A DNA stretch of 64,000 nt from assembly GCA_963713285.1 (NCBI GenBank), contig CAVQLA010000014.1, positions 140,566 through 204,565 on the forward strand, written 5' to 3'. Below, one piece after another: positions 1,021 through 24,530 of this stretch. A program made the position numbers and the translations under genes. Positions within the stretch are counted from its first letter, which is position 1; each line of letters begins with the position of its first letter. Source of the DNA: an uncultured Chloroflexia bacterium (lineage in GTDB: Bacteria > Chloroflexota > Limnocylindria > Limnocylindrales > CSP1-4). A model generated the notes under the pieces. That model had not been told where the DNA came from. It ran no database searches and saw only the letters and a list, made by a program, of their open reading frames with translations.

Positions 1021-2519
1021 CGGGCGCCGCGGCCGGGTCCGCGGGCACGTCCGCGTCGGCGGGCCCCGCGTCGGCGCCCCCCTCGTCTGCCGGCCCCTCG
1101 GCGGCGGGCGCGCCGGCGACGGGTGCTGCGCCGGTGCCGCAGCGCCTCACGCTCGTGCTGCCGTCCACGGCGGAGTTCGACTCCCGCACCTACCGGATCG
1201 CCAGCGCCGCGGCCGCCCGTGGCCACGCCGTCATGGTGCTCGCCCGCCGCAAGCCCGGGCTCCCGGCCGAGGAGCGGCACCCGGCCGGGTACACGATCCT
1301 CCGCGTGCCCTTCGCCGCGATCGACGGGCTGCCGATGCCGCGCCTGGTCTACGGGGCGCGGGTCGGCGTCCGGCGGCTCCACGCGTGGCGGACGGGCTCC
1401 CCGTACCGACCTCCGACGGCGCCCGGGCAGATCGCCGCCCCCGGGTCACCCGGGGTGGTCGCGGTGACCGCGGTGGCCGCGGCCCCGCCGGCAACCACGC
1501 CCGGCGTGCCCGGACGCCGCGCCTCGCTGCCTCGGCGGGCCGCCGCGGGTCTCGTGCGGCGCCTCGCGATCCCGCTCACGATCCGCTCCCAGGGCCGCTG
1601 GTCGCGCGCCGTGGCCCCGCCCGCCGACCTGTACCACGGCATGGCGTACATGGGGATCCCGATCGCCCTCGGGCTCGCGAAGCGTGACCGCGCGCGGGTC
1701 GTCTACGACGCGCGCGACATCTACCTGGACGCCGCGAACCTCGCCCGGATGACGGGCCCGATGCGGACCCTCCTCGCCCGCGCCGAGCGCGGCTGGGCAC
1801 GCGACGCCGATCGCGTCGTCACCGTCAACCGGCCGTACGCGGAGGTGATGGCCGACCGCTTCGGCGTGCCGCTCCCGCTCATCGTGCTCAACTGCAGCTA
1901 TCGCTTCGACCCGCCGGAGCCTCGGCCGAGACGCCTCCACGAGGCGCTCGGCCTCGAGGCGGCCACGCGAGTCGTCCTCTACCAGGGGGGCTTCAGTCGC
2001 GATCGCGGCATCGAGGAGCTCATCGCGGCGATCCCCTCCGTCCCCGGGGCAATCCTCGTGCTGCTGGGCTACGGCGTGCTCGAGGAGCAGCTGCGGGCCG
2101 CTGCGGCGGCCTCCCTCGGCCGCATCCACGTCCTGCCGGCGGTCGCCCCCACCGAGCTCCTCGCCTGGGTCGCCTCCGCCGACGTCGTCGCCATGCCCAT
2201 CCAGCCCACGACGCTCAACCATCGCCTGACCACGCCGAACAAGCTCTTCGAGGCCATGGCCGCCGGCGTGCCGGTCGTCGCCTCGGACCTGCCCGGGATG
2301 GCGCCGATCGTGCGCGAGACGGGATGCGGGGTCGTGTGCGACCCGACCGACCCGGCCGCGATCGCGGCGGCCCTCCGCGAGATCCTCTCCGCGTCGCCGG
2401 CCGACCTCGACGCCTATCGCCGCCGGGCGCTCGCGGCTGCGCACGGCTCCTACAGCTGGGAGACGCAGGTCGCGCTCCTCTTCGAGGAGTACGGCCGCCT
2501 GACGGGAAGGCCGTGGTGA
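1017..2519 (+). CDS. Glycosyltransferase, GT4 family (GT-B fold)
   Basis: C-terminal motifs: RVVLYQGGFSRDRGIEELIAA...TTPNKLFEAMAAGVPVVASDLPG. Candidate start is GTG 1017, overlapping the wecB stop (GTGA). The N-terminus is low-complexity, so the true start may lie further downstream. Confidence 0.7.
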   Translation: MTGAAAGSAGTSASAGPASAPPSSAGPSAAGAPATGAAPVPQRLTLVLPSTAEFDSRTYRIASAAAARGHAVMVLARRKPGLPAEERHPAGYTILRVPFAAIDGLPMPRLVYGARVGVRRLHAWRTGSPYRPPTAPGQIAAPGSPGVVAVTAVAAAPPATTPGVPGRRASLPRRAAAGLVRRLAIPLTIRSQGRWSRAVAPPADLYHGMAYMGIPIALGLAKRDRARVVYDARDIYLDAANLARMTGPMRTLLARAERGWARDADRVVTVNRPYAEVMADRFGVPLPLIVLNCSYRFDPPEPRPRRLHEALGLEAATRVVLYQGGFSRDRGIEELIAAIPSVPGAILVLLGYGVLEEQLRAAAAASLGRIHVLPAVAPTELLAWVASADVVAMPIQPTTLNHRLTTPNKLFEAMAAGVPVVASDLPGMAPIVRETGCGVVCDPTDPAAIAAALREILSASPADLDAYRRRALAAAHGSYSWETQVALLFEEYGRLTGRPW

Positions 2520-3880
2520 CGGCCCGCGCCCGTCCCCGCGCCGTGCTCCTCGTGGCCAACGCGGCCGCCCCGTACTCCCGCGGCCTGCGGGTCGCGCGAA
2601 GCCTGGCCGCGGCCGGCTACGACGTCGAGATCGCGGCGGTCGCCGAGGGAGACCACCCGCTGGAGGAGCGCGACGGGGCGGTGGTGGTGAGGCGCTACCG
2701 GCCTCGCGGGCCGTGGGTGCGCCGGGCCACTCCCCCGCCGGGTCCGGCACACGGCCTCCGCCGCTGGATCATCCGGGCCCACCGGGCGCTGGGGCGGGTC
2801 GTCCCGCCGCTCCGCCGGTTCCCTGCGCCGACGCCCGAGGCGATCGCCAAGATCGCCTGGTGGCCGGTCCACGTGCGCGGCTGGTGGGCGGCGCTCGATG
2901 CCGACCTGCCGCCGGCCGACCTGTACCACGCCTTCGGGATCCTGACGATCGACGTCGCGAACCGCCTCGCCGCCCGCGCTCGCGCCGAGGGGTTCGCCGG
3001 CCGGGTGGTGTACGACGTCATCGACGTGATCCTCGACTCCAACAACTACAGCAGCGTGCCGGCCCCCATCCTCGCCTGGTACCGCCGGCGCGAGCGGCGC
3101 TGGGTCGGCCGGGCCGACGCGATCGTCACGGTGAACGAGCCGATCGCCCAGCACCTCGAGCGGGCCTGGTCGCTGCGCACGCCGCCGACGGTGCTCCTCA
3201 ACTGCCAGCCCCGCTGGACGCCGCCGGAGCCGCGTCCCGACCACATCCGCGCCGCGACCGGGATCCCGCCGGAGCGGCGGATCGTCCTGTGGCTCGGCCG
3301 GCTGGGCCGCGAGCGCGGCCTGGACGAGGCGGCGGAGGCGGTCCTGCGGCTGGACGACGCCGCGCTCGTCATGCTCGGCTGGGGCCCCTGGGCCGACCAG
3401 CTGCGCGAGCGCGACCATGACCCGCGCTTCGCCGGGCACCACTTCACGCTGCCGCCCGTCCATCCCGACGAGGTCCCGGCCTGGACCGCGTCGGCCGACG
3501 TCTCGGTGATCGCCGTCCCCGCCAACTCGCTGAACCAGCGCCTCTCGACGCCGAACAAGTTCTGGGAGTCGCTGACCGCCGGCACCCCGATCGTGCTGGG
3601 GCGCGACCTGGAGGTGATGCGCGCGATCCTCGAGGCGGACGACCTCGGGCGCACCGCGGACCCCGGGGACCCGGACGACCTCGCCCGGGCCGTGCGGGAG
3701 ATCCTGGACCGCGAGCCGGAGGCCCGCGCGGCGATGCGAGGACGCTGTCTCCGCGTCAGCCGGGAGCGCTACAACTGGGAGACCGCGGTCATCCCGTACC
3801 TCGATCTCGTCGGCCGCCCGGACGGCGGCCCCCGGCGGGACGAGCTCCCGGCCGCCCCGGGTCCGCGTCTCAGCGCTTGA
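2516..3880 (+). CDS. Glycosyltransferase, GT4 family
   Basis: GTG 2516 overlaps the upstream stop (GTGA). Reads VTARARPRAVLLVANAAAPYSRG... Has the GT-B C-terminal motif STPNKFWESLTAGTPIV. Confidence 0.75.
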   Translation: MTARARPRAVLLVANAAAPYSRGLRVARSLAAAGYDVEIAAVAEGDHPLEERDGAVVVRRYRPRGPWVRRATPPPGPAHGLRRWIIRAHRALGRVVPPLRRFPAPTPEAIAKIAWWPVHVRGWWAALDADLPPADLYHAFGILTIDVANRLAARARAEGFAGRVVYDVIDVILDSNNYSSVPAPILAWYRRRERRWVGRADAIVTVNEPIAQHLERAWSLRTPPTVLLNCQPRWTPPEPRPDHIRAATGIPPERRIVLWLGRLGRERGLDEAAEAVLRLDDAALVMLGWGPWADQLRERDHDPRFAGHHFTLPPVHPDEVPAWTASADVSVIAVPANSLNQRLSTPNKFWESLTAGTPIVLGRDLEVMRAILEADDLGRTADPGDPDDLARAVREILDREPEARAAMRGRCLRVSRERYNWETAVIPYLDLVGRPDGGPRRDELPAAPGPRLSA

Positions 3881-4766
3881 TCGTCCCGCCGTAGCGCGCG
3901 ATCTGGGCGGCCTTCTCGGCGCGCTCCCGCGCCGAGTGCTCCTGGTGGATCGCGACGACGTCGGCGGGATCGCCCTCGGCGGCGATCCGCCCGTGCTCCA
4001 GCATGATCGCCCGGTTGCAGTACTCGGTGACCCACTGCATGTCGTGGGTGACGAGCACGATCGCCTTCGCCGACCGGACCAGCTCCAGCACCCGGGCCTT
4101 CGACTTCGCGCGGAAGACCTGGTCGCCCGTCGCGAGGACCTCGTCGAGCAGCAGCACGTCCGGGTCGACCGAGGTCGCGATCGAGAAGCCGAGCCTCGCC
4201 CGCATCCCCGACGAGTACGTCTTGATGGGGGCGTCGATGAACTCGCCGAGGTCGGCGAAGGCGACGATCGGCTCGAGGCGCTCCTCGACCTCGGCCTTCG
4301 TCATGCCCAGGAAGGCTCCGGCGAGCCGGACGTTCTCGCGCCCGGTCAGGTCCTGGTCGAAGCCAGCCCCCAGGGTCAGGAGGCTCGAGATGCGGCCGTG
4401 GACGAGGATCGAGCCCTCGGACGGCATCAGGATGCCCGCGAGCGCCTGCAGGAGGGTGCTCTTCCCCGCACCGTTGGGCCCGATGACCGCGAGCGACTCG
4501 CCGTTGGTGAGGCGGAACGAGACGTCCCGGAGCGCCCAGAACTCGCGGGCCCGCGAGCGGTCGCGCCGGGCGAAGTGGGCGAAGGTCTCGCGGAGGGTCG
4601 TCTTGCGGGTGAAGCGGAGGTTGTAGCGGATCCCGAGCCCGCCGACGTCGATCGCCGGCGATCCGCCGGCCGTCCACGGCGGAGCCGCGTCGTGGTCGTG
4701 GCGGGTGATCTCCCCGAGATCCCGCGCGTCCGCCGGTCCGACGCGCGGGGGTGCCGGCTGCGCCAT
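3870..4766 (-). CDS. wzt: ABC transporter ATP-binding protein of a polysaccharide/teichoic-acid exporter (Wzt/TagH/KpsT-like), 298 aa, no C-terminal carbohydrate-binding domain
   Basis: Walker A GPNGAGKST, ABC signature YSSGMRARLGFS, Walker B LLLDEVLATGD. The start ATG overlaps the stop of the upstream permease (ATGA). The long N-terminal extension in the ORF track is spurious. Confidence 0.85.
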   Translation of the reverse strand: MAQPAPPRVGPADARDLGEITRHDHDAAPPWTAGGSPAIDVGGLGIRYNLRFTRKTTLRETFAHFARRDRSRAREFWALRDVSFRLTNGESLAVIGPNGAGKSTLLQALAGILMPSEGSILVHGRISSLLTLGAGFDQDLTGRENVRLAGAFLGMTKAEVEERLEPIVAFADLGEFIDAPIKTYSSGMRARLGFSIATSVDPDVLLLDEVLATGDQVFRAKSKARVLELVRSAKAIVLVTHDMQWVTEYCNRAIMLEHGRIAAEGDPADVVAIHQEHSARERAEKAAQIARYGGTIKR

Positions 4767-5653
4767 CACAGCACCTTCGCGAACGACGGCTCGAGGCGCT
4801 TGAAGGTGGCGATGGCCACGAGCACCAGCCCGAGCGACACCACGAGCAGGGCGCCGAGCGCGGCCCAGTCCGGGAGGAGCGGCCCACCCTCCGGCGTCCC
4901 GTAGATCACGGCGCGATAGGCCTCGAACAGGATCGCGAACGGGTTGATCCTCAGCAGCGTGAGGATCACCGGGTACTGCTGGAGCAGGTCGCTCTCCTCG
5001 AGCAGCGCGATGGAGTAGAGGCCGGGAGAGAGGTAGAACCAGAGGCGCAGCGCATGCCGGGCGATGTTCCCCACGTCGCGCACGAACACGTTGAGGGCGG
5101 CCAGCACGAGCCCCAGGGCCAGGGTGAACACCAGCTGGACGACCGCGATGACCGGGATCAGGAGGAGCGTGAGGCTGAGGCGGTCGCGGTAGAGCAGGAG
5201 CAGGAGGCCCATGAGCGGGATCATCCCGAAGGCGAAGTTGACGACGCCGGCGAAGATGCCCGCCACGGGCAGCACGATCTTCGGGAACTGGAGCTGGCGG
5301 ATCAGGCTGCCCTGGCTCACGACCGAGGTGATCGAGTCGCCGACGCTGCTGGTGAACCACTTCCAGGGGAGGATCGCGGCGAAGATGAAGAGCGGGTAGT
5401 CCGGCTGCGGACGGGCGAAGATCACCGAGACGAGGATCACGTAGACGGCCATCTGCAGGAGGGGATCCAGCACCCACCAGACGTTGCCGAGCACCGTGTC
5501 GGCGCCCTTCTTGCGGAGGTCCGCCTGGACGAGGTAGCGGATCAGCTGCCGGCGCGAGAGGGCCTCGCGGATCCCTTCGACGACGAGTCCGGGGATGCCG
5601 GGCCGGATCGCCGAGTTCTGGACGGTGACGGGCTGCGCGGCGGGAGCGGACAT
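4766..5653 (-). CDS. wzm: ABC-2 type polysaccharide exporter permease (Wzm/TagG-like)
   Basis: 295 aa with six predicted TM helices and an ABC-2 permease architecture. Immediately upstream of, and coupled to, the ATPase gene. Confidence 0.8.
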   Translation of the reverse strand: MSAPAAQPVTVQNSAIRPGIPGLVVEGIREALSRRQLIRYLVQADLRKKGADTVLGNVWWVLDPLLQMAVYVILVSVIFARPQPDYPLFIFAAILPWKWFTSSVGDSITSVVSQGSLIRQLQFPKIVLPVAGIFAGVVNFAFGMIPLMGLLLLLYRDRLSLTLLLIPVIAVVQLVFTLALGLVLAALNVFVRDVGNIARHALRLWFYLSPGLYSIALLEESDLLQQYPVILTLLRINPFAILFEAYRAVIYGTPEGGPLLPDWAALGALLVVSLGLVLVAIATFKRLEPSFAKVL

Positions 5654-6234
5654 GGGCGGCGGAAGGGTAGCACAGGATCCCGGGCGCGCCGGGCCGGCCG
5701 CCTGGGTGGCCGTCCCGGCCCCGTGCCCCGCGCACCGGCCATCCTCGCCTTTGACCAGACTATCTACTCACCAGCGCCATCCTCCAGCACGGAGGTCACG
5801 CTGAAGTGCGGGTTCGCGTTGAGTCGCACGTTCAGGACTGGCGATCCTGACGAGACTATCTGTTCAGACCGCCACGAACTGCCACGCGAAGCCGGGCGCC
5901 GCCGCAGTCGACGACCCACCGGCCCGCTGCTCCGCCGGCGGCCACACCGCGCCAACGCGGACGGCCCACGGCCGCACCCGAGCGCCGCGCACCGGGGAGC
6001 CAGCCGCCGCCCACGACTCACGGCACTCCACGGCCACGCCGCGCCGCCGCCGAGCACCCCGGGCGACGCACGCGCGTCGCCACCGGGCGCCACCAGCAGC
6101 AGGCTCCACCGGTGCCGACCGCCAGGATCACGGAGCCGACGCGGTGACAGAGTCACGGAGCGTCACGAGGGGGCCGCCGGGGTAGCATTCGATCGATGCG
6201 TTCACGTGGCGCCGGCGGCGCCCGGCCGGTCTGC

Positions 6235-7422
6235 ATGATCACCCACTCCTACTACGAGGAGGATGCCCGCGTGCGGCGGGCCGCCGAGACCCTGGTCCTG
6301 GCCGGCCACCCCGTGGACGTCTTCGCGCTGCGGCGTCCGGGCGACTCGCCCGAGGCGATGCTCGAGGGTGTCCGGCTCCACCGGCTCGACGTGCGGCGCC
6401 ACCAGGGCGCCGGCATCGCGACCTACATGGCGGAGTACCTCGCGTTCCTGGTGCGGGCCACGTTCGCGGTCACGGCCAGCCACCGCCGGCGGCGGTATGG
6501 GCTCGTCCACGTGAACACGCTGCCGGACTTCCTCGCGTTCGCCGGCCTGCCGCTGCGCCTGGCTGCCGGCGTCCCGATCCTCCTGGACCTCCACGAGGCG
6601 ATGCCCGAGTTCTTCCGGGCGCGCTTCCCGGCGCGTGCCTCGCGGCTTGCCCACGAGGCGCTGCTGCTCCAGGAGCGCGCCTCGATCGCCATCGCCGCCG
6701 CGGTCGTGACGGTCAACGACGCGCTCGTCGAGCGCCTGGTGGAGCAGGGCGTGCAGCCGGCGAAGGTCACCGTGATCCTCAACGCCCCCGACCTCCGCCG
6801 GTTCGACCCTGCGGCGCACGCCACGCGCACCTTCGCGGAGGATGGCGTGCTGCGCCTCGTGTACGCCGGTGCGCTCACTCCCACGTACGAGCTCGACGTG
6901 GTCGTCGACGCCGTCGAGCTGCTCGGGCGCCTGCGCCCGGAGCTTCGGGTCACGCTCGACCTCTACGGGCGGGGCGACAGTGAGACCGCCCTCGGCGAGC
7001 GGGTGCGCGCCCACGGGCTCGCGGATCGCATCCGGCTCCACGGCCGCATCCCGCTGGAGGACGTGCCGGCCGCCATCGCGGCCGCCGACATCGGGCTGGC
7101 GCCCACCGCGCGCACCCCCTTCACGGACATGTCGCTCTCCACGAAGCTCTTCGAGTACGCGGCGATGGGCAAGCCGGTCATCGCCAGCTCCCTGCCGACC
7201 GTGGACCGGTACTTCCCGCAGGGGACCGTGGCTCACTACGCTCCGGGGGACCCCGAGGACCTGGCGCGGGCCATCCTGGCGCTGGTCGACGATCCGATCG
7301 CCCGCGAGGCCGGCCGGGCGGCGACGGGTCGGCGGGCCGCGGAGCTCTCGTGGGACGGGCAGGCGGCGCGCTACCTTGCGCTCGTCGAGCGTCTCTGTGC
7401 CGGCCGGGGGACGCGCCGGTGA
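6235..7422 (+). CDS. Glycosyltransferase, GT4 family
   Basis: MITHSYYEEDARVRRAAETLVLAGHPVDVF... with GT-B C-terminal motif TKLFEYAAMGKPVIASSLP. ATG at 6235; an in-frame upstream codon at 6196 is also possible. Divergent from wzm. Confidence 0.75.
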   Translation: MITHSYYEEDARVRRAAETLVLAGHPVDVFALRRPGDSPEAMLEGVRLHRLDVRRHQGAGIATYMAEYLAFLVRATFAVTASHRRRRYGLVHVNTLPDFLAFAGLPLRLAAGVPILLDLHEAMPEFFRARFPARASRLAHEALLLQERASIAIAAAVVTVNDALVERLVEQGVQPAKVTVILNAPDLRRFDPAAHATRTFAEDGVLRLVYAGALTPTYELDVVVDAVELLGRLRPELRVTLDLYGRGDSETALGERVRAHGLADRIRLHGRIPLEDVPAAIAAADIGLAPTARTPFTDMSLSTKLFEYAAMGKPVIASSLPTVDRYFPQGTVAHYAPGDPEDLARAILALVDDPIAREAGRAATGRRAAELSWDGQAARYLALVERLCAGRGTRR

Positions 7423-7612
7423 CCGGTCCCGGGGTGGGTCGCGACCGCCCGGCCTCCCGGGAAGGCGCGCGAGGCGGCAGAATGCGGGCTCGACCGGCAA
7501 CCGGTCGCCGGCCGGCCGGCGCGACGTCGTCCCCCGACGCGTCGGCCGCGGCGCCGCGCGGGACAGCACCGGCCGAGCGCCCGGGTTCGGGCGGCATGCC
7601 ACGGGAGGTCAG

Positions 7613-8929
7613 GTGATCCAGGAAGCATCGCCCGCGGATCGGCGCATCGCCGTCGTCGGGCTCGGGTATGTCGGTCTGCCGCTTGCCCTGGCGTTCGTCG
7701 AATCGGGCACCACCGTGGCCGGGCTCGACGCCAGCCCGAGCCGCGTGGCCGAGCTGGCCGCCGGGCACTCGCCGATCGAGGACGTCCCCGACGCGCGGCT
7801 GGCGGCGGCCCTCGCGGCCGGCTTCCGGCCGGTCGGGCCCGAGCCCTCCGAGATCGCCGCGGCGGACGCGGTCTTCGTCTGCGTCCCGACGCCCGTCACG
7901 GCCACCAAGGACCCCGACCTCGGGCCCGTGCTGGCGGCGGCGGAGCTCGTGCGGGCGGGGCTCCGGGCGGGGCAGCTGGTGGTCCTCCAGTCCACGACCT
8001 TCCCGGGCACGACCACGGGCGCCTTCCGCGCCGCCCTCGAGCGCGAGAGCGGGCTCGTCGCGGGCGTCGACTTCGACCTCGCCTTCGCCCCCGAGCGCGT
8101 CAACCCGGGCGACCCGGCCAGCTCCGGCAAGGCCGTGCCACGGCTGGTCGGCGGCCTCACGCCGCCCGCCACGACCCGCGCGGCCGCCCTGCTGCGCCGC
8201 ATCAACGACACCGTGGTCGAGCTCTCGTCGCCGGACGCCGCGGAGCTCGCGAAGCTCCACGAGAACGTGTTCCGGAACGTCAACATCGCCCTCGTCAACG
8301 AGCTCGCCCTCCTGTGCGAGCGGATGGGCCTCGACGTCTGGGAGATCATCGACGCGGCGGCCACGAAGCCGTTCGGGTTCATGAAGTTCACGCCCGGCCC
8401 CGGCGTCGGCGGCCACTGCATCCCCGTGGACCCGTACTACCTCGCGTGGCGTGCCCGCGAGTTCGACTTCAACGACCGCTTCGTCGAGCTCGCCGCCGAC
8501 GTCAACGTCGGCATGCCGCGCCACGTGGTCGACCTTGCCGCCGAGGCGCTCAACGACCGGGCACGCGCGCTGCGTGGCGCCCGGGTGGGGGTCGTCGGCG
8601 TGGCCTTCAAGCCCAACGTCGGCGACGCCCGCGAGTCGCCGGCTGCCGACGTCCTGGCCGGGCTGCGCGAGCGCGGCGCCGACGTCCGCTACCACGATCC
8701 GCACGTGGAGCGCTTCCGCGACGGCGCCGGCACCGAGAGCACGTCGGTGCCCCTCGCGGACCTGCTCGGCTGGGCCGAGATCGTCATCGTCGTGACCCCC
8801 CACGCCGCCGTGGACTGGGAGGCCGTCTACGGGCGGGCCGACCTCGTCCTCGACACCGTCAACTCCTCGCGCGGCCACCCGGTCCGCCCCCGCCAGGTCC
8901 TCCGCCTGGGTGCGGGGTGGAGCACCTGA
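7613..8929 (+). CDS. Nucleotide-sugar dehydrogenase (UDP-glucose/GDP-mannose dehydrogenase family; WecC/Cap5O-like UDP-ManNAc dehydrogenase is plausible)
   Basis: N-terminal Rossmann motif IAVVGLGYVGLPLALAF and catalytic-Cys motif GGHCIPVDP. GTG 7613 is preceded by GGGAGG. Confidence 0.85.
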   Translation: MIQEASPADRRIAVVGLGYVGLPLALAFVESGTTVAGLDASPSRVAELAAGHSPIEDVPDARLAAALAAGFRPVGPEPSEIAAADAVFVCVPTPVTATKDPDLGPVLAAAELVRAGLRAGQLVVLQSTTFPGTTTGAFRAALERESGLVAGVDFDLAFAPERVNPGDPASSGKAVPRLVGGLTPPATTRAAALLRRINDTVVELSSPDAAELAKLHENVFRNVNIALVNELALLCERMGLDVWEIIDAAATKPFGFMKFTPGPGVGGHCIPVDPYYLAWRAREFDFNDRFVELAADVNVGMPRHVVDLAAEALNDRARALRGARVGVVGVAFKPNVGDARESPAADVLAGLRERGADVRYHDPHVERFRDGAGTESTSVPLADLLGWAEIVIVVTPHAAVDWEAVYGRADLVLDTVNSSRGHPVRPRQVLRLGAGWST

Positions 8930-10950
8930 CGGTGGCCTCGCGACTGGTGCTGGTCGCCGCCGCCGAGGCGGCACCGCGCCCGGCGCCGGACGCGCGCGTC
9001 GTGGTCCTCGACACCGCCTGGACGCCGGGACCGGGCGACCGCGCGGACCTGGTCCCGCTGCGCCCGGCGGTGGCCGCCGCCCTGGAGCGGGAGGACCTGA
9101 TCGACCGGGCCATCGACCTCGTGGACGCCTGGGCCGCGCGCCTCGCCCTCGCCGAGCGGTCCACGTTCCGGGGCGTCAGCTGGTGGCCTCGCCGCGAGGC
9201 CTGGAAGTGGCTCGTCGGGAGCCTGCAGTGGCGCTCGATCCTCGACGAGGTGCTCCGCGACGCGGCGGCCATCGGCGTCGCGATCGACGAGCTGGTCGTG
9301 CCGCCCGGCGACGAGGCGCTCGCGCGCGCCGCCGCCGCCCTCGCCGCGGAGCATGGCCTGCAGGCGACCCGGGATGCCGGGGAGGGCCCGGCCGGGAGCG
9401 CCGCCGACGACCCGGGGGGCGACCCGCCCGGGGTCGCCGCTGCCGCCGCGTCCGGCCTGGGCGACCGGGTCCTCTGGCGCCTGGGCCGGCATCCGCGCCA
9501 GGTCCGCAAGCGCGAGCTCGACCGCCGCGCCGCGTTCCTGGCCGCCCGTGCCGAGCGCCTCGCGGCGGCGGGCGGGGGGCGCCTGCTCGTCATCACCGTG
9601 CCGCGGGTCCACCAGCGGATCGGCGGTGGCGACGCGCCGCTCGTCGACCCGTTCCTCGGCCCGGTGGTCGATCGCCTCCGGGGGACACGGCTCGACCCGA
9701 TCACGATCGCCCTCGGGCTCGACCGCGGCGACGACGCGGCATGGCCGGCGATCGAGGCCGACGAGCGGCTGCTCGCGGAGGCGTTCCTCCCGGCCCGCTG
9801 GTCCACCCTCGAGGACGACACGGCCGCGGCGGCGGCCGCGGCGGCGATCGGCCGAGCGCTCGACGAGGTGACGCCCGCCGACGCGGAAGGGGGAGACCTC
9901 GGCCATCTCGGCGCGGGCCTGCTCGAGGAGGTGCGCCGCGACGCCCGGACCCTCCTGGCCGCCCGGCTGCGGAAGGCGCTCCGGTTCGAGCGGTTCCTGC
10001 GCGAGCTCCGGCCGGCCGGGCTCCTCCTCTACAACGAGTACGGGCGGCTCGACTGGCTGGCGGGAGCGCGCTGGGCCGGGGTGCCGGTCGTCGCCGTCCA
10101 GCACGGCATCATCATCCCGGGCCACGTCGGCTACCGCCACGCCCGCCATCCCGGCCTCGTCCTCCCCGCCCGCACCTGCGTGTTCGGGCCGTACGAGGCG
10201 GGCGTCCTCCGCGACCACGGCGGCTACGCACCCGGGGAGGTCGTCGTCACCGGCTCGCCGCGGCCGGCGGCCGGGGTCGATGCGGCCTCGGCCGGGCCGC
10301 GGGCCGGCCTGCCGGCGGGCGCGCCCGCTCCGGCAGGCGTGCCCGCTGACGATGCCGGGCGGGCGCGCGAGCGCGACGACGTCCGGCGCGAGCTCGGCGT
10401 CGCCGACGGGGATCGCCTGCTCGTGATCTCCACGACCCGCGACCCGGACCTGCGACGGTTCCACCAGGACCATGCGTTCGCCCGCCTCCTGGACGGTCCG
10501 CTGCCCGGCGTGCACCTCGTCTTCAAGCAGCACCCCGCCGAGCCCGACCGCGGCGACTACGAGCGCCTGGTGGCGGGCCTGGCCCGCGCCGGCGGCTATC
10601 CGCCCCCGCCCGTCTCCGTCGTCCGCGACGTCGACCTCTACCGCCTCCTCCGGGCGGCCGACGCCCACCTCGGCCTCTACTCCACCGTCCTCACCGACGC
10701 CGTCGTGGCGGGAACCCCGAACCTCGTGGCGATCACCCAGGCCCGGGCCGACCTCCTCGGCTACGTCGCGGCAGGCGTCGCCGCGCCGGTTCGGACGCAC
10801 GCCGATCTGCGGGCCGCGCTGGAGGCGCCCCCGGTGCCCGATCCGGCCGCGCGCCGGGCGTTCCTCGACGACCACTTCCTGCCCGGCGATGGGACGGCCC
10901 GGATCGCCGACGCGGTGCTCGCCGTAACGGAGCTGGAGGTCCGCGGATGA
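8917..10950 (+). CDS. TagB/TagF- or KpsC/KpsS-like GT-B transferase with a K-x-HP motif; candidate CMP-keto-acid or polyol-phosphate transferase
   Basis: C-terminal half carries HLVFKQHPAEP and LGLYSTVLTDAVVAGTPNLVAI, which match the CDP-glycerol glycerophosphotransferase / capsule_synth pattern. GTG 8917 overlaps the dehydrogenase stop. Confidence 0.55.
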   Translation: MEHLTVASRLVLVAAAEAAPRPAPDARVVVLDTAWTPGPGDRADLVPLRPAVAAALEREDLIDRAIDLVDAWAARLALAERSTFRGVSWWPRREAWKWLVGSLQWRSILDEVLRDAAAIGVAIDELVVPPGDEALARAAAALAAEHGLQATRDAGEGPAGSAADDPGGDPPGVAAAAASGLGDRVLWRLGRHPRQVRKRELDRRAAFLAARAERLAAAGGGRLLVITVPRVHQRIGGGDAPLVDPFLGPVVDRLRGTRLDPITIALGLDRGDDAAWPAIEADERLLAEAFLPARWSTLEDDTAAAAAAAAIGRALDEVTPADAEGGDLGHLGAGLLEEVRRDARTLLAARLRKALRFERFLRELRPAGLLLYNEYGRLDWLAGARWAGVPVVAVQHGIIIPGHVGYRHARHPGLVLPARTCVFGPYEAGVLRDHGGYAPGEVVVTGSPRPAAGVDAASAGPRAGLPAGAPAPAGVPADDAGRARERDDVRRELGVADGDRLLVISTTRDPDLRRFHQDHAFARLLDGPLPGVHLVFKQHPAEPDRGDYERLVAGLARAGGYPPPPVSVVRDVDLYRLLRAADAHLGLYSTVLTDAVVAGTPNLVAITQARADLLGYVAAGVAAPVRTHADLRAALEAPPVPDPAARRAFLDDHFLPGDGTARIADAVLAVTELEVRG

Positions 10951-12710
10951 CCCTGCCGGTGCTCTTCCTGGTCCCGGCGCGCGGCGGCAGTGTCCGCGTC
11001 CCGGGGAAGAACCTGCGATCGGTGGCGGGCATCCCCCTCGTGGCGCACGGCGTGCGGATCGCGCGGGCGGCAGCGGCCCGAACCCCGGGCGGTCCCCACG
11101 CGGTGGCCTGCAGCACGGACGACCCCGCCATCGCGGCCGTCGCCCGCGCGTGGCATGCGGAGATCCCCTTCGAGCGCCCGGCCGCGCTCGCCGGGCCCGA
11201 CGCGTCGTCGGTCGACGTGGCCCTCCACGCCCTGGAGACCCTCGCGGCCCGCGGGCGCCGGTTCCGCGCCATCGTGCTCGTCCAGCCGACCTCACCCCTC
11301 GCCGATCCCGGCGATATCGCCGCGGCGGTCGCCGCGCTCGACGCCGACGGGGCGCCCGTCACGAGCGTCGTCGCCGCTCACCCGGTGGCCTGGCACGTCG
11401 CGCTCGACGCGGACCGGCGCCTGCGCCCGGTCGACGGAGATGCCCGCCACCTCCTGGCGGGGGCCTTCTACGCCATCACGCCCGGGGAGCTGGCGACGGC
11501 CCGGGCCTTCGTCGTTCCCGGCCGGACGCGCGGGCTGGAGGTGGCGGCCGCGACGGCGGTCGACATCGACACGGAGAACGACCTCGCCGTCGCCCGGGCG
11601 CTCGCGGCCTCGCGCCCCGTGCCGCCCGTCGCACTGGCGGGCCGCTCGATCGGGGATGGCCCCTGCTTCGTGATCGCCGAGGGCGGCGTCAACCACGACG
11701 GCGACCCGGCGCGCGCCCACCGGCTCGTCGACGCGGCGGCCGACGCGGCGGCCGACGCCGTGAAGTTCCAGGCGTTCGACCCGGCGCTCCTCGCCGCGGC
11801 CGGCGCCCCGCTGGCCGACTACCAGCGGGCGGCGGGCGAGACCGGGGCCGACCAGCGGGCGATGCTGGCCCGGCTCGCGCTTCCCGCCGGGGCGTGGCCC
11901 GGCCTCCGCGACCACGCCCACGACCGCGGCCTCGTCTTCCTGGCGAGCCCCTTCGACGAGCCGTCGGCGGACCTCCTGGAGGCGCTCGGGATCCCGGCGT
12001 TCAAGGTTGGCTCGGGCGAGCTCACGAACCTCCCGTTCCTCGAGCGGCTGGCGGGCGTCGGGCGGCCGCTCCTCGTCTCCACGGGGATGGCCACGCTGGT
12101 CGAGGTGGCCGATGCCCTCGACGCGATCGCGGGCAGCGGCGACCCGCCGGTGGCGCTTCTCCACTGCGTCTCCGCCTACCCGGCCGACCCGGCGGAGGCG
12201 AACCTCCGCGCGATCGCCACGTTGCGCGCCGCCTTCGGCCGCCCGTCCGGCTGGTCCGACCACACCCCAGGGATCGAGCTGCCCACGGCGGCGGCGGCCC
12301 TGGGCGCCGACCTCCTCGAGAAGCACCTGACGCTCGATCGGTCGCTGCCGGGTCCGGACCACCGGGCGTCGCTCGAGCCGGCCGAGATGACGGCCCTCGT
12401 CCGGGCCGTGCGCACCGTCGAGGTGGCCCGGGGCGACGGCGAGAAGGCGCCGTCCGCGGCGGAGCTGGCCGTGGCGGCGGTGGCCCGCAAGAGCCTCCAC
12501 TGGGCCCGGGCCCTCGCGGCCGGGGCCGCGGTCACGCCGGCCGACCTCGTCGCCCAGCGACCCGGGACGGGGCTGCCGCCCGGCGAGCGCGACCTCGTGA
12601 TCGGGCGCCGCACGAGGCGGCCCGTGCCGGCCGGCAGCCTCGTGACGCTCGCCGACGTCGAGGGCGACGTCGGGGCCGGCGTCGGGGCCGGCGGGGAGCC
12701 GCCCGCATGA
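10947..12710 (+). CDS. Bifunctional fusion: N-terminal CMP-nonulosonate cytidylyltransferase (NeuA/LegF-like) and C-terminal nonulosonate synthase (NeuB/LegI-like, PEP-dependent, with SAF domain)
   Basis: N-terminus LFLVPARGGSVRVPGKNL matches the CTP_transf_3 family. The C-terminal half has FVIAEGGVNHDGD...ADAVKFQAFD, FKVGSGELTNLPFLE and SDHTPGIELP (NeuB motifs), plus a SAF-like tail. ATGA overlap with the upstream gene. Confidence 0.85.
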   Translation: MTLPVLFLVPARGGSVRVPGKNLRSVAGIPLVAHGVRIARAAAARTPGGPHAVACSTDDPAIAAVARAWHAEIPFERPAALAGPDASSVDVALHALETLAARGRRFRAIVLVQPTSPLADPGDIAAAVAALDADGAPVTSVVAAHPVAWHVALDADRRLRPVDGDARHLLAGAFYAITPGELATARAFVVPGRTRGLEVAAATAVDIDTENDLAVARALAASRPVPPVALAGRSIGDGPCFVIAEGGVNHDGDPARAHRLVDAAADAAADAVKFQAFDPALLAAAGAPLADYQRAAGETGADQRAMLARLALPAGAWPGLRDHAHDRGLVFLASPFDEPSADLLEALGIPAFKVGSGELTNLPFLERLAGVGRPLLVSTGMATLVEVADALDAIAGSGDPPVALLHCVSAYPADPAEANLRAIATLRAAFGRPSGWSDHTPGIELPTAAAALGADLLEKHLTLDRSLPGPDHRASLEPAEMTALVRAVRTVEVARGDGEKAPSAAELAVAAVARKSLHWARALAAGAAVTPADLVAQRPGTGLPPGERDLVIGRRTRRPVPAGSLVTLADVEGDVGAGVGAGGEPPA

Positions 12711-13867
12711 CGCGCCGGGTCGCCGTTCTCACGACCGGCCGCCAGGACTGGGGCCTCCTGCGCTCCACGTGCGTGGCGCTCCGCGACGCGCACGGCGCCG
12801 AGGTCCTGGTGCTGGCCGGGGGGATGCACCTGAGCGGGCGCCACGGCAGGCCGATCGCGGCGGTGCGCGAGGACGGCTTCGAGCCGGCGGCGGAGATGCC
12901 CTGGCTGGGCGTCGACGCCGCCGCGGACCCCCCGGCCCACCGCCAGGCGGGCGCGGCGCTGGTGGCCGTGGGCGACGCGCTCGCCCGCCTGGACCCCGAT
13001 GCGCTCGTCGTCGCCGGGGATCGCCTCGAGACGGCCGCCGCCGCGCTGGCCGCGACCGTGGGACGCGTCCCCCTCGTCCATCTCCACGGCGGCGAGCAGA
13101 CGGGCGGCGCCTTCGACGACGCCCTGCGCCACGCGATCACGAAGCTGGCCCACCTCCACCTCGTCAGCCACGCCGAGCACGCCCGCCGCGTGATCGCCCT
13201 GGGCGAGGATCCCGCGACGGTGCACGTGATCGGACCCCCCGGGGTCGACGCCCTGGCGCGCCCGGACCTCCCCGGCCGAGCGGAGCTGGAGGCCGACCTC
13301 GGGATCGCCCTCGCGCCCCCGCTGGTCGTCGTCACCGTGCACCCGGCGACGCTCGACGCGGACCCCGCCGCGGTCGCTGCCCCGGTCGTGGCGGCGATGG
13401 GCGCCGTCGCGGCGACCTATGTCGTCACCCTGCCCAACAGCGATCCCGGCGGCGACGCGATCCGGGCTGCGCTCCTGGCGCACGCCGCCGGGCGCCCCGG
13501 CACGGTCGCCGTCGTCCCGGCGCTCGGCGAGCGTCGCTACTGGGGCCTCCTGCGCCTCGCCGACGCGATGCTCGGCAACAGCTCGAGCGCGATCGTCGAG
13601 GCGCCGGCGGTCGACCTCCCCGCGGTCGACGTCGGGGACCGCCAGGAGGGCCGCCGCCGGGAGGCCAACGTCATCCACGCCCTGTCCGACCCGGACGCCG
13701 TGGAGCGCGCCCTTCGCCGGGCGCTCGAGCCCGGGTACCGGGCGGCCGTCCGCGCTGCCCGCCCGCCCCTCGCCGACGGCCGGGCCGGCGAGCGTGCCGC
13801 CCGTATCATCGCGGCATGGCAGCCCTCCCGACCGCCGCGCAAGGCGCCCATCCCGGTGGACGGGTGA
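12707..13867 (+). CDS. Hydrolysing UDP/GDP-N-acetylglucosamine 2-epimerase (NeuC/LegG-like)
   Basis: MTRRVAVLTTGRQDWG...HLHGGEQTGGAFDDALRHAITKLAHLHL, the Epimerase_2 hydrolysing subtype. ATGA overlap with the upstream gene. Confidence 0.85.
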   Translation: MTRRVAVLTTGRQDWGLLRSTCVALRDAHGAEVLVLAGGMHLSGRHGRPIAAVREDGFEPAAEMPWLGVDAAADPPAHRQAGAALVAVGDALARLDPDALVVAGDRLETAAAALAATVGRVPLVHLHGGEQTGGAFDDALRHAITKLAHLHLVSHAEHARRVIALGEDPATVHVIGPPGVDALARPDLPGRAELEADLGIALAPPLVVVTVHPATLDADPAAVAAPVVAAMGAVAATYVVTLPNSDPGGDAIRAALLAHAAGRPGTVAVVPALGERRYWGLLRLADAMLGNSSSAIVEAPAVDLPAVDVGDRQEGRRREANVIHALSDPDAVERALRRALEPGYRAAVRAARPPLADGRAGERAARIIAAWQPSRPPRKAPIPVDG

Positions 13868-14529
13868 TGCCGCGGCGGCTGGTGGTCCTGGGCGGGGGCG
13901 AGCACGCCCGGGTCGTCGTCGACGCGGCGCGGTCCGCCGTCCCCGGCTGGGATGTCGTCGGGATCGTCGATCCGGGAGCCGCGGAGCGCACGCGGACGCT
14001 CCTCGCGGTCGAGCACCTGGGCGACGACGCGGCGTTCGCCGCCGCGCTGGACGGGATGCGGCCGGCCGAGCGACCGCACCTCGTGCTGGGGCTGGGCGCG
14101 ATGGGCGATCCCGCGGCGCGCCGTGCCCTGGTCGCCCGCTACGAGGGCCGCGCGCCGTGGGCCACGCTCGTCCACGGGGCCGCCTGGGTCGCCCCGTCGG
14201 CCACCCTCGGGCCGGGCGCCGTCATCCTCGCGGGTGCCGTGGTCAACGCGGGCGCCGACGTCGGCGACCACGCTGTCGTCAACAGCGGCGCGATCCTCGA
14301 GCACGACGCGGTCCTCGGCGCGTTCGCCCAGCTGGCGCCGGGCGCGGTCGTCGGCGGCGCCGCGGTCGTCGAGGCGGACGCCTACGTCGCGATCGGCGCG
14401 CTCGTGCGCGACCACGTGACCGTGGGCCGCGGCGCGGTGGTGGGAATGGGCGCGGCCGTCGTGGCCGACGTGCCGGAGGATGCGGTCGTCGTCGGCGTCC
14501 CGGCCCGGCGCCGAGAGGCGTCCCGGTGA
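13867..14529 (+). CDS. Hexapeptide-repeat sugar N/O-acetyltransferase (NeuD/LegH/PglD-like)
   Basis: N-terminal Rossmann-like LVVLGGGEHARVVVD, followed by left-handed beta-helix hexapeptide repeats (GAVVNAGADVGDHAVVNSGAILEHD...). ATG overlaps the NeuC stop. Confidence 0.8.
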   Translation: MPRRLVVLGGGEHARVVVDAARSAVPGWDVVGIVDPGAAERTRTLLAVEHLGDDAAFAAALDGMRPAERPHLVLGLGAMGDPAARRALVARYEGRAPWATLVHGAAWVAPSATLGPGAVILAGAVVNAGADVGDHAVVNSGAILEHDAVLGAFAQLAPGAVVGGAAVVEADAYVAIGALVRDHVTVGRGAVVGMGAAVVADVPEDAVVVGVPARRREASR

Positions 14530-15569
14530 GCGACCGGATCAGCCCGGCCCTCGTGCCCGTCGAGGGCTCACTCCGCGATGCCATGCGGGCGCTCGACGTG
14601 GGCGCCCTGCGCATCGCCCTCGTCGTCGACGGGGAGGGGCGGCTCGTCGGCGTGACCACCGACGGCGACGTCCGCCGCGCGCTCCTCTCCGGCGTCCGCC
14701 TCGACGATCCCCTCGGCCCGCACGTGACGCGCGCGTTCACGGCCGTCACGCCGCGCGACGGCCGGGCCGACGTGATCGACCTGATGCGGGCCCGGCACAT
14801 CGGGGCCGTCCCGGTCCTCGACGACGCCGGCCGGCCGGTGGCGCTCCACCTCCTGGACGAGGCCCTGGCCCCGGCGGAGCGCACGACCTGGGCGGTGGTG
14901 ATGGCCGGCGGCCGGGGCGTCCGCCTCCGTCCCCTCACCGAGAACGTCCCCAAGCCGATGCTGCGCGTCGCCGGGCGGCCGATCCTCGAGCGGATCGTCC
15001 TGCACCTCGTCGGTCACGGCATCACCCGGATCCACCTCGCCATCGGCTACCTCGGGGACAGGATCGAGGAGCACTTCGCGGACGGCAGCCGCTTCGGGGC
15101 CCGGATCTCGTACCTCCGCGAGGACGAGCCGCTGGGCACCGGCGGCGCCCTCGGCCTCCTGCCCGAGCTGCCCCGCGAGCCGCTCCTCGTGATGAACGGC
15201 GACCTCGTCACCCAGGCCGACCTGGGCGCCCTGCTCGACGTCCACGCCGCGCGGGGAGACGTCGCGACGATCGGCGTCCGGCGCTACGTCCACGCCGTCC
15301 CGTTCGGCTGCGTCGAGCGCGCCGGGGACCGCATCGTCGGGCTCGAGGAGAAGCCGACGCTCACGCGCGACGTGAACACCGGCATCTACGCCCTGGCGCC
15401 CGGGCTCGTCGCGCGGGTCGAGCGCGGGCGGCCGGTCGGGATGCCCGACCTCATCGGCGATGCCCTCGCGCGCGGCGAGCCCGTGGGCGCCTTCGAGATC
15501 GAGGACGACTGGATCGACGTCGGGCAGCGCGAGCAGCTCGACCGCGCCCGCGGAGGTGGCGACGCATGA
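14526..15569 (+). CDS. CBS-domain sugar-phosphate nucleotidyltransferase (PtmE-like, putative GlcN/GlcNAc-1-P guanylyltransferase)
   Basis: Tandem CBS pair (LRIALVVDGEGRLVGVTTDGDVRRAL...) followed by an NTP_transferase core WAVVMAGGRGVRLRPLTENVPKPML. GTG overlaps the upstream stop. Confidence 0.8.
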   Translation: MSDRISPALVPVEGSLRDAMRALDVGALRIALVVDGEGRLVGVTTDGDVRRALLSGVRLDDPLGPHVTRAFTAVTPRDGRADVIDLMRARHIGAVPVLDDAGRPVALHLLDEALAPAERTTWAVVMAGGRGVRLRPLTENVPKPMLRVAGRPILERIVLHLVGHGITRIHLAIGYLGDRIEEHFADGSRFGARISYLREDEPLGTGGALGLLPELPREPLLVMNGDLVTQADLGALLDVHAARGDVATIGVRRYVHAVPFGCVERAGDRIVGLEEKPTLTRDVNTGIYALAPGLVARVERGRPVGMPDLIGDALARGEPVGAFEIEDDWIDVGQREQLDRARGGGDA

Positions 15570-16559
15570 CCCTGCGCGACGTGCCCGTGCTCGTCACCGG
15601 CGCGGACGGCTTCATCGGCAGCCACCTCGTGGAGCGCCTTGTCGCGGAGGGCGCCCGCGTGCGGGCGTTCTGCCTCTACACGTCCCGCGGGAGCTGGGGC
15701 TGGCTCGACGAGGCCCCGCCGGACGTGCGCGCCGCGCTCGACGTGCGGCTCGGGGACGTCCGCGACGCCCGCTTCGTCGCCGAGGCGACGGACGGCGTCG
15801 AGGTGGTCTTCCACCTCGCGGCGCTCATCGCGATCCCGTACTCGTACACGGCGCCCGAATCGTTCGTCGACACGAACGTTCGCGGCACCCTCAACGTCCT
15901 CGAGGCGGCCCGAAGGACGGCGGTCCGGCGCGTGATCGTCACGAGCACCAGCGAGGTCTACGGCACGCCGGAGATCCTCCCGATCACCGAGGCCCACCCG
16001 CTCAACGCGCAGTCCCCGTACGCGGCGACCAAGGTGGCGGCCGACCAGCTGGCGCTTGCCTACCACCGCAGCTACGGGGTGCCGGCCGTCATCCTCCGGC
16101 CGTTCAACACGTACGGCCCGCGCCAGTCCGCGCGGGCCGTCCTGCCCACGATGCTCCGCCAGCTGCTCGCCGGCCGGACCCAGGTGCGCCTGGGCCGCCT
16201 GGATCCGCGCCGCGACCTCACGTACGTCGCCGACACCGTGGACGGGTTCGTCCGCGCGGCGACGGCGGCAGGGATCGACGGCGCGACGATCCAGCTCGGG
16301 ACGGGCGGCACCGAGTCGATCGCGGAGCTGTTCGCGCGTGCCTGCCGCCTGCTCGGCGTCGACGCGGTCGCGGTCGAGGATGCCGGGCGCCTGCGGCCCG
16401 ACGCCAGCGAGGTCCTGGCCCTGCAAGTCGGACCCGTCCCGGGCCCGGGAGCTGCTCGGCTGGACGGCGACGACCAGCCTGGACGCGGGCCTCCGGGAGA
16501 CCATCGCCTGGCTCCGCGCCCACCCCGAGCCCGGCGACGTCGACCGTGTCCAGCTCTGA
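15566..16559 (+). CDS. NAD-dependent sugar nucleotide 4,6-dehydratase/epimerase (LegB-like SDR), apparent +1 frameshift near nt 16430
   Basis: MTLRDVPVLVTGADGFIGSHLV..., YxxxK in PYAATKVAAD. The reading frame switches after EVLALQ to continue DPSRARELLGWTATTSLDAGLRETIAWLRAHPE and ends at 16559. ATGA overlap with the upstream gene, GGAGG RBS. Confidence 0.7.
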
Positions 16560-17703: not shown

Positions 17704-17850
17704 GCCCGGCCCGCCCGCGTTGCCGCTTCTTCACCGGGACCACATCGCCCGGCCACCCGGCCACGCGCCCGGGGTGCGGTACGATGCGCCGGGCCCGCCA
17801 CCGTGGCGCCGCGCCCCGGAGCACCCGACCACCAACCGACAAGAGGCACC

Positions 17851-19584: not shown

Positions 19585-19596
19585 GCGGAGCAGGGC

Positions 19597-24486: not shown

Positions 24487-24530
24487 GCGCCCGGCCCCGG
24501 ACGCCCCGGTGCTCCCCCCGCGGGGTGCCC

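Follow-up and report, generated by a model that had tools for sequence, protein, structure and literature searches.

A candidate CMP-nonulosonate glycosyltransferase with a predicted GT-B fold, encoded beside legionaminic-acid-type genes in an uncultured Chloroflexota genome

Glycosyltransferases (GTs) of the GT-B class that release cytidine monophosphate (CMP) typically carry a (K/R)xHP motif, which packs against the cytosine and is common to sialyltransferases and to the retaining 3-deoxy-D-manno-oct-2-ulosonic acid (Kdo) transferases of families GT99 and GT107 (PMC12887879). The mechanism of KpsC uses an aspartate nucleophile (PMC12887879). TagF-like enzymes also release CMP and need two invariant histidines, H444 and H584 in TagF, and H300 (following W299) and H433 in TarL (PMC10901376). 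Knowledge of nonulosonic acid transferases is scarce, and TagB-like GT-B enzymes of Tannerella transfer derivatives of pseudaminic acid (Pse) or legionaminic acid (Leg) onto N-acetylmannosaminuronic acid (ManNAcA) (PMC5420450). Here we analyze a forward-strand gene at positions 8917-10950 of a 64,000-nucleotide stretch of contig CAVQLA010000014.1 (the window), which comes from an uncultured Chloroflexia bacterium; its product is a candidate CMP-nonulosonate glycosyltransferase. To our knowledge, Leg and Pse transferases are known in a handful of cases, namely the Maf proteins, KpsS1 (GT118) and the Tannerella TagB-like pair. Apart from the Tannerella and Bacillus cases, our literature search turned up no paper connecting nonulosonic acid transfer with TagF-like enzymes.

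KpsS and KpsC (GT107, PF05159) provide the best profile match. They share with the window protein the GT-B class, the (K/R)xHP and S-T...E/D-A...G-x-P motifs and a proposed CMP-activated ulosonic-acid donor, both occur in polymer loci that depend on ATP-binding cassette (ABC) transporters, and the duplicated modules of KpsC have a parallel in the relative P0184. In contrast to KpsS and KpsC, the window protein scores below the PF05159 threshold, does not have the conserved Asp of the QxxxD motif, has Q-H-G in place of L-E-D-G and has, in addition, an N-terminal domain of 217 residues. A 5,7-diamino sugar with nine carbons is the predicted donor here, as against Kdo there, and the hosts are Chloroflexota rather than Gram-negative capsule producers. 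A closer functional parallel is KpsS1 (GT118) of Acinetobacter baumannii, a KpsS-related GT-B enzyme that transfers Pse5Ac7Ac; because it uses a CMP-nonulosonate donor, the superfamily includes nonulosonate transferases. KpsS1, compared by its published description, differs in being 30% identical to KpsS, to which the present family is far more distant, and in being retaining with a Y-E base motif (PMC12887879). The GT-B sialyltransferases (GT38 NeuS, GT52 and GT80) have the HP and S-S/T motifs, a CMP-nonulosonate donor and a single displacement such as we propose here, but there is no significant profile match to Escherichia coli NeuS and Q-H-G replaces their D/E-D/E-G.

TagF, TarL and TagB (PF04464) are likewise GT-B enzymes; judged by motif order, their two invariant histidines would correspond to those of Q-H-G and x-H-P here, the G-x-P-R-x-D hinge and YS(S/T) come in the same order, and the polymerases have an additional N-terminal domain. 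The window protein differs in falling below the Pfam threshold, in a profile score that is not significant, in having no genes for cytidine diphosphate (CDP)-polyols nearby and in its predicted product, a glycoside rather than a phosphodiester. Tanf_01245 and TFUB4_00887 of Tannerella forsythia are TagB-like GT-B proteins with an HP motif, encoded beside CMP-Pse or CMP-Leg genes (PMC5420450). Their acceptor is ManNAcA, and a uridine diphosphate (UDP)-ManNAc/Glc-type dehydrogenase is encoded directly upstream of the gene studied here. They are known to us by published description and differ in length (442-445 residues), in a D/E-D/E-G motif, in serving protein O-glycosylation and in belonging to Bacteroidota. 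The resemblance to UDP-GlcNAc 2-epimerases (PF02350) is one of fold, the window protein having no Pfam match to them.

Gene, family and predicted fold

The open reading frame (ORF) is a real gene. Long spurious ORFs are common in the window because its G+C content is 73%; the ORF is accepted because the G+C content at third codon positions is ~0.95 in its frame, ranging over 0.91-0.97 across ~8950-10750, and because the coding signal 5' of ~8900 shifts to the frame of the preceding dehydrogenase gene. The original prediction had a 678-residue product starting at 8917. The ORF holds up, but its translation gives 677 residues and a stop, and GTG 8932 appears the likelier start, considering that GGAG lies 9-10 nucleotides upstream of it and that a database protein identical (100%) to the window protein, P0001, has 672 residues. 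The TGA stop codon (10948-10950) and the ATG that starts the next gene share nucleotides in the sequence ATGA. Inspection of the protein sequence found no hydrophobic run of transmembrane-helix length. Only four lysines occur in the whole protein, K537 of the KxHP motif among them.

A word-indexed homologue search returned 36 clusters, all full-length and 41-100% identical, to which a second such search with a profile added P0184 as the sole new member. An exhaustive search extended the family to 676 representative clusters at E ≤ 1e-3, with 119 at E ≤ 1e-30, and tblastn against plasmids gave no match. The window protein does not reach the Pfam thresholds of PF05159, PF04464 or PF02350, with no match even at E ≤ 10. 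A Pfam scan of 31 members yielded sub-threshold matches only, spread over DUF6365, Glyco_transf_4 (8 members, on the N-lobe), Capsule_synth (6), DUF6716 (4), Glyphos_transf (3, best 4e-5) and Epimerase_2 (2). The DUF6365 matches, found in 21 of the 31, cover ~25 residues and were judged uninformative. The family has neither a Pfam or NCBIfam model nor a solved relative detectable by sequence, as the family profile also found no match among PDB sequences. Searches of PDB sequences with the relatives P0181, P0161 and P0031 gave no TagF or TarL alignment, the only product being a weak alignment to the epimerase CapG, in which the VQHG and VTGSP segments of P0181 are aligned.

An AlphaFold2 model built from the family alignment has a pLDDT of 88.7 and a pTM of 0.88, with disorder limited to two low-complexity loops (residues 156-178 and 452-473). 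Its secondary structure comprises a seven-stranded N-lobe, a C-lobe and terminal helices that cross back to the N-lobe, and the predicted fold is, with high confidence, GT-B, with two Rossmann-like lobes and an inter-lobe cleft. A Foldseek search of the PDB matched 172 chains at E ≤ 1e-3; those listed, 50 in number, comprise GT-B glycosyltransferases, enzymes of the TagF/TarL type and GT-B-like UDP-sugar 2-epimerases. The best matches (E 5e-9 to 1e-6) are NeuC/WecB 2-epimerases, GlgM, TarL, TagF and several GT4 and GT1 enzymes, in alignments of 470-560 columns that span both lobes. The description of the protein as a TagF/KpsC-like GT-B enzyme is thus borne out, TagF and TarL being among the best fold matches and KpsS among the profile matches described below; the families named with it share motifs and fold with the window protein, which itself passes the Pfam threshold of none of them. 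An N-terminal region of ~400 residues had been said to be without homology. This applies to residues 1-217, whereas residues ~218-450 are modelled as the GT-B N-lobe. Modelled alone, residues 1-217 reach a pLDDT of 86.5, and the nearest fold in the PDB has an E value of 0.028, so that none falls at or below 1e-3. TagF-like polymerases have an extra, variable N-terminal domain without a consistent fold (PMC10901376), a pattern that this 217-residue domain fits.

To score conservation, 31 homologues (41-91% identical) were aligned. The residues that never vary are D32, W72, W90 and W105 of the N-terminal domain; E374, Q395-H396-G397, Y406, G446 and R449 farther along; and S505, K537, H539-P540, D582, H584, S589-T590 and N602 in the C-lobe region. 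The invariant acidic residues are E374, E427, D582 and D612. Among 107 full-length relatives, QHG is kept in 105 and [KR]xHP in 106. The HLVFKQHPAEP and STVLTDAVVAGTPNLVAI patterns on which the original prediction was built are therefore not peculiar to the window protein but near-invariant across the family. S589-T590 make up the phosphate-binding S-S/T motif, and the family bears the hallmarks of GT-B enzymes whose leaving group is CMP.

Profiles were compared by hhalign with KpsC, KpsS, NeuS and NeuE from E. coli UTI89 and with the K2 capsule polymerase from E. coli CFT073, whose assignment as TagF-like was confirmed by a Pfam search. The family profile matches KpsS with an E value of 6e-5 and a probability of 65%; the 87 aligned columns are 29% identical, begin at the KxHP strand and take in the S-T helix, and a second run reproduced the match (E 4e-5). 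K537-Q-H539-P540 aligns with IKHHP of KpsS and with VKVHP and YKPHP of KpsC. The alignments to the two KpsC modules are weak (E 0.07-0.16) yet collinear, pairing V-Q-H-G with L-E-D-G, LLVISTTRD with VVDQTFND and KQHP with either KVHP or KPHP. The QxxxD motif carries the Asp nucleophile of the KpsC/WbbB double-displacement mechanism. No conserved counterpart of this Asp was found in the family: LLVISTTRD (501-509), in a part of the alignment that is of low confidence, is invariant only at V503 and S505, and D509 varies. By way of the L-E-D-G alignment, the position of the D/E-D/E-G base motif of GT38, GT52 and GT80 sialyltransferases holds the invariant Q-H-G.

The comparison with the TagF-like K2 domain is not significant (E 0.03-0.04); it aligns GSPRxD with GYPRID, STT with APTWR, KQHP with RGHH, so that H539 falls on GHH, and LYST with DYSS. 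Neither NeuS (E 0.17-0.2), NeuE (DUF6716) nor a PseG-like protein gave a significant match by hhalign. It should be mentioned that RefSeq calls UTI89 neuE, in the K1 polysialic acid cluster (L085, 28473-29621), a 'DUF6716 putative glycosyltransferase'. Taken together, the C-lobe looks nearest to KpsS, and the Q-H-G after a beta-strand and the G-x-P-R-x-D hinge give the N-lobe a TagF-like look.

Linkage and fusion to nonulosonate genes

The gene lies directly upstream of CMP-nonulosonate genes, as first described, and the ATGA overlap indicates that it is translationally coupled to a single ORF for CMP-synthetase and NeuB (Table 1). In the related locus L005 and in the pseudaminic-like loci, CMP-synthetase and NeuB are called as separate genes, unlike the fusion in the window. 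The genes that follow encode a NeuC-like hydrolysing 2-epimerase, a PglD-like N-acetyltransferase, a CBS+NTP_transferase protein (PtmE-like), a 4,6-dehydratase and a DegT aminotransferase, a set that we take, by domain content only, to match the guanosine diphosphate (GDP)-linked legionaminic acid pathway of Campylobacter. All seven legionaminic-type steps to the CMP-sugar have their own genes in the window, and the other transferases near the gene are all GT4. Since every biosynthetic step is provided for and the nearby transferases are GT4, a nonulosonate transferase is the one function left over, which points to the gene studied here.

The distribution of the family was scanned in one genome per GTDB species, giving 78 loci, nearly all in metagenome-assembled genomes labelled Chloroflexota, uncultured Chloroflexia or Candidatus Limnocylindria/Limnocylindrales. 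The family thus appears almost confined to Limnocylindria-type Chloroflexota, an uncultured soil lineage. Linkage was assessed with window proteins as tblastn queries on the 48 non-redundant loci flanked by 7 kb or more on both sides. In 44 of these 48, with legionaminic-type and pseudaminic-like clusters alike, a NeuB homologue is encoded no more than 10 kb from the family gene, which bears out the co-occurrence expected of a nonulosonate transferase; the UDP-ManNAc/Glc dehydrogenase co-occurs in most loci. The CMP-synthetase start is 9-212 nucleotides past the stop of the family gene in most legionaminic-type loci, while in a few the cluster is upstream or ~1.2 kb away. Pseudaminic-like loci have NeuB, CTP_transf_3, DegT and short-chain dehydrogenase/reductase dehydratases 1.5-8 kb away, and those examined for a PseG-like protein (L001/L002 and L003) have one. 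A neighbour-joining tree, computed without support values, sets legionaminic-type loci partly apart from the others, which is suggestive of a family sorted in part by nonulosonate pathway type.

The family gene is also fused to other enzymes. A GNAT (Acetyltransf_3) domain is found at the C-terminus of P0012, P0039, P0044, P0050, P0056 and P0060 and at the N-terminus of P0052, P0059 and P0082, and the occurrence of both orientations argues for functional coupling of the GNAT and GT-B modules. The fused GNAT is probably PseH, the pathway N-acetyltransferase. In L001 (10001-12379) it is the sole PseH candidate and a separate PseG-like hydrolase is present, leaving the GT-B module there without a biosynthetic role. 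The idea, raised by these fusions, that the GT-B domain is itself PseG was set aside, as PseG-like genes are separate in pseudaminic-like clusters and NeuC is present in legionaminic-type ones. Fusions to GT4 domains (P0085, P0169 and the L068 protein) are what one would expect if these were multi-domain polymer synthases. Tandem duplication of the entire module, with QHG and KxHP kept in both copies, is seen within P0184 (1302 residues) and P0186 (1885 residues) and as adjacent gene pairs in five loci (L003, L006, L026, L036 and L063); in L072 the other copy stands on the opposite strand at a distance of ~7.5 kb. By analogy with the two GT107 modules of KpsC, which they recall, tandem modules hint at two linkages or at polymerisation.

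Several features of the window lie beside this system. The LegB-like 4,6-dehydratase (15566-16807, +) is 88% identical to its L005 orthologue over residues 1-290 and then continues as an Arg/Pro-rich tail that is seemingly out of frame, with the C-terminus that one would expect (...PGDVD...) lying in another frame near 16530-16560. The apparent frameshift at ~16.44 kb would be an assembly error or a pseudogene, and a pseudogene, if real, would disable the legionaminic-type pathway in the window organism. A block encoding a SurA-like peptidyl-prolyl isomerase (PPIase), MazG, RNase PH and Ham1 (17803-22225, +) trails the glycan cluster here, in L001, in L005 and in many other Limnocylindria loci. 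From its recurrence, the block appears to mark a fixed chromosomal site at which legionaminic-type and pseudaminic-like sets replace one another. In L032 the PPIase gene directly follows the family gene, as if the nonulosonate block were missing, and the same PPIase adjacency is seen in L084, where the protein match is partial. An AT3 acyltransferase-SGNH fusion of the OafA-like glycan O-acetyltransferase type (22311-24500, +) is encoded a few genes downstream of the cluster. Farther along, a 2889-residue ORF (33080-41749, -) with GH94 supersandwich, GH94 catalytic and glucoamylase-like domains resembles cyclic beta-1,2-glucan synthase.

Table 1. Positions of the candidate transferase, its motifs and domains, and the surrounding glycan genes in the window
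Feature	Residues	Nucleotides	Strand	Basis or remark
Candidate transferase ORF		8917..10950	+	GTG 8917 start, 677 residues + stop; likelier GTG 8932, 672 residues
Family-specific N-terminal alpha/beta domain + basic helix	1-217	8917..9567	+	Modelled alone
Listed stretch inside N-terminal domain		9001..9021	+	Family alignment, protein sequence
Disordered linker in N-terminal domain	156-178			AlphaFold model
Predicted GT-B N-lobe, acceptor side	~218-450	9568..10266	+	Seven beta-strands in model; GT-B matches span both lobes
Helical insertion in N-lobe	~288-364			
A-V-Q-H-G-I with invariant Q395-H396-G397		10093..10110	+	Sits after strand 391-394
T-G-S-P-R hinge motif (G446, P448, R449)		10249..10263	+	Aligns with G-Y-P-R-I-D of E. 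coli K2 TagF-like polymerase
Low-complexity Ala/Pro/Gly insertion	452-473	10270..10335	+	Disordered, missing from most relatives
Predicted GT-B C-lobe, nucleotide-binding Rossmann domain	~479-640	10351..10836	+	
HLVFKQHPAEP, (K/R)xHP motif (K537, H539, P540)	533-543	10513..10545	+	Translation, family alignment, KpsS alignment
ADAHLGLYSTVLTDAVVAGTPNLVAI		10657..10734	+	Invariant D582, H584, S589, T590, N602
STVLTDAVVAGTPNLVAI	589-606	10681..10734	+	Translation
CMP-nonulosonate synthetase (CTP_transf_3) + NeuB + SAF domain, one 587-residue ORF		10947..12710	+	Directly downstream, ATGA overlap with candidate transferase
Rest of legionaminic-acid-type pathway		12707..17703	+	Same strand, tightly packed
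Glycopolymer assembly genes		28..8929	.	
WecB-like 2-epimerase		28-1020		
Three GT4 genes		~1017-2519, ~2516-3880, 6196-7422		
ABC-2 exporter pair		3870-~4770 and 4766-5653	-	
UDP-ManNAc/Glc-type dehydrogenase		~7418-8929		Directly upstream of candidate transferase

Candidate function and competing explanations

We consider it fairly probable that the window protein is a CMP-nonulosonate glycosyltransferase acting on a ManNAcA-containing wall glycopolymer that is exported by an ABC transporter. A nonulosonate transferase had been proposed from gene position, and this proposal gains support from the NeuB linkage and from the recurrent GNAT fusions, which were not foreseen. The donor had been given as nonulosonate or polyol-phosphate; of these the nonulosonate is favoured, because no gene for CDP-glycerol or CDP-ribitol synthesis occurs in the Pfam-annotated loci. 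The enzyme would be a soluble or peripheral cytoplasmic GT-B glycosyltransferase supplied with CMP-nonulosonic acid by the downstream genes, the sugar being of the legionaminic-acid type in the window. Its acceptor would be a ManNAcA-containing glycan that the neighbouring GT4 enzymes put together on a lipid carrier and that the adjacent ABC-2 transporter exports. The enzyme may polymerise or make a single addition, and the product may be a teichulosonic-acid-like wall polymer or a polymer with a nonulosonate cap.

A more tentative mechanism, to which we give a little less than even weight, can be drawn from the positions of the motifs. K537-x-H539-P540 and S589-T590 would hold the CMP moiety in the C-lobe, and H396 in the Q-H-G loop of the N-lobe would act as the general base that deprotonates the acceptor hydroxyl. 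This hydroxyl would attack C2 of the sugar directly as CMP departs, in a single-displacement, inverting reaction, and the Trp-rich, family-specific N-terminal domain may hold the acceptor polymer.

Several observations weigh against this assignment. The window protein has no useful match in Pfam (even at E ≤ 10), NCBIfam or PDB chain sequences, and the likeness to KpsS is confined to the C-lobe and of modest probability. Foldseek does not set the protein apart from UDP-sugar GT-B enzymes, with NeuC ranking first. The equivalence of H396 to H444 of TagF follows from motif order, and hhalign, which gave a sensible alignment of the C-lobe to the K2 domain, mis-registered the W-H-G/Q-H-G segment. 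Four of the 48 loci (L025, L032, L034 and L068) have no NeuB within 10 kb and keep the GT4/GT2/ABC/dehydrogenase setting, and the pathway's dehydratase gene is seemingly frameshifted in the window. The hosts are uncultured, and the assignment is a prediction from sequence, a structure model and gene context. The SpsB protein of Bacillus subtilis, TagB-like, HP-bearing and encoded beside legionaminic acid genes, is dispensable for Leg transfer (PMC7439481), and gene context combined with an HP motif can therefore mislead.

The same CMP-nonulosonate transfer could also follow a retaining course of the KpsC/WbbB/KpsS1 type, through a covalent carboxylate adduct that is resolved by the acceptor. 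KpsS is the closest sequence-profile relative of the family, and P0184 and P0186 even exceed the Capsule_synth (PF05159) cut-off, with 30.1 and 28.2 bits against 20, in matches that cover only profile positions 187-277, the HP-ST region. The tandem modules of P0184 and the tandem paralogues are reminiscent of KpsC with its pair of GT107 modules, and KpsS1, a known Pse transferase, is a retaining enzyme (PMC12887879). However, no conserved Asp is found where the QxxxD motif of KpsC aligns, D509 being variable, and Q-H-G stands in place of D/E-D/E-G. The invariant E374, E427, D582 and D612 leave room for another nucleophile, and we regard the retaining course as unlikely but worth keeping in view.

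Slightly less likely still is an ordinary GT-B transferase that uses a nucleoside diphosphate (NDP)-sugar, such as ManNAcA or another hexose, in which case the linkage to NeuB would merely reflect a shared polymer locus. Such an enzyme would be at home in the four loci that keep the gene without a nearby NeuB and beside the frequent UDP-ManNAc/Glc dehydrogenase; the top Foldseek matches bind UDP-sugars, and the weak Glyco_transf_4 matches on the N-lobe and the GT4 fusions point the same way. The invariance of KxHP and S-T and the similarity to KpsS speak instead for a CMP-linked donor (PMC12887879). An NDP-sugar donor would also leave the translational coupling to the CMP-synthetase gene, the fusions to a probable PseH in both orientations and the partial sorting of the family tree by nonulosonate pathway unaccounted for, and the cluster would be left without any nonulosonate transferase.

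A TagF/TagB-type phosphotransferase, which would move polyol-phosphate or sugar-phosphate from a CDP donor and build a teichoic-acid-like polymer with phosphodiester bonds, seems improbable. The best fold matches include TarL and TagF, and the motif order of the K2 TagF-like domain is kept: (W/Q)HG, G(Y/S)PRxD, APT/STT, xHP/xHH and YSS/YST. The two invariant histidines would fit the H444/H584 pattern of TagF and the H300/H433 pattern of TarL, and TagF-like polymerases likewise bear an extra variable N-terminal domain (PMC10901376). Among the relatives, P0036 narrowly exceeds the Glyphos_transf (PF04464) cut-off in a partial match (23.7 against 22.1 bits), and NCBI names P0031 a CDP-glycerol glycerophosphotransferase family protein. 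On the other side, the window protein itself has no Glyphos_transf match, and the TagF-like profile score is the non-significant one given above. No TagD or TarI/TarJ-type gene was found in the window cluster or in ten Pfam-annotated loci (L001-L006, L032, L034 and L068, with L025 judged by synteny with L034), a result that applies to the loci only, and the sole cytidylyltransferase type in the annotated loci is CTP_transf_3, the CMP-ulosonic-acid type.

Finally, a biosynthetic nucleotide-sugar hydrolase or 2-epimerase analogous to PseG/LegG, to which the leading NeuC and WecB Foldseek matches, the weak Epimerase_2 matches of relatives, the alignment of P0181 to CapG and a fusion to probable PseH that would suit two consecutive pathway steps might point, is very improbable, as a NeuC-like gene is already present in the window, PseG-like proteins are encoded separately in pseudaminic-like clusters, the one compared shows no significant profile match to the family, the family spans both pathway types, which need different hydrolases, and KxHP and S-T are CMP-type nucleotide-binding motifs.

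Implications for nonulosonate transfer and Limnocylindria envelopes

The CMP-nonulosonate transferase proposed here would have a function of known kind. What would be new is the family, with its hybrid motifs and orphan N-terminal domain; it is sequence-distinct and motif-defined, counts hundreds of members and is tied to Leg-type and Pse-like pathways. A bolder proposal, which we put forward as speculation and think more apt to fail than to hold, is that it represents a new CAZy-level family in which a KpsS-type CMP-binding lobe is joined to a TagF-type histidine base and hinge, bridging teichoic-acid polymerases and sialyltransferase-like enzymes. With its Trp-rich N-terminal domain, such a family might, in monoderm Chloroflexota (Limnocylindria), make or cap an anionic wall polymer that resembles teichulosonic acid and contains no phosphate, and its tandem forms might be two-linkage polymerases.

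If the assigned function is true, these proteins would be new biocatalysts for nonulosonate glycoconjugates. They would also serve as a test case for the switch of CMP-dependent GT-B enzymes between phosphodiester and glycoside products, and would open a first route to the cell-envelope chemistry of Limnocylindria, a lineage that is abundant in soil and uncultured.

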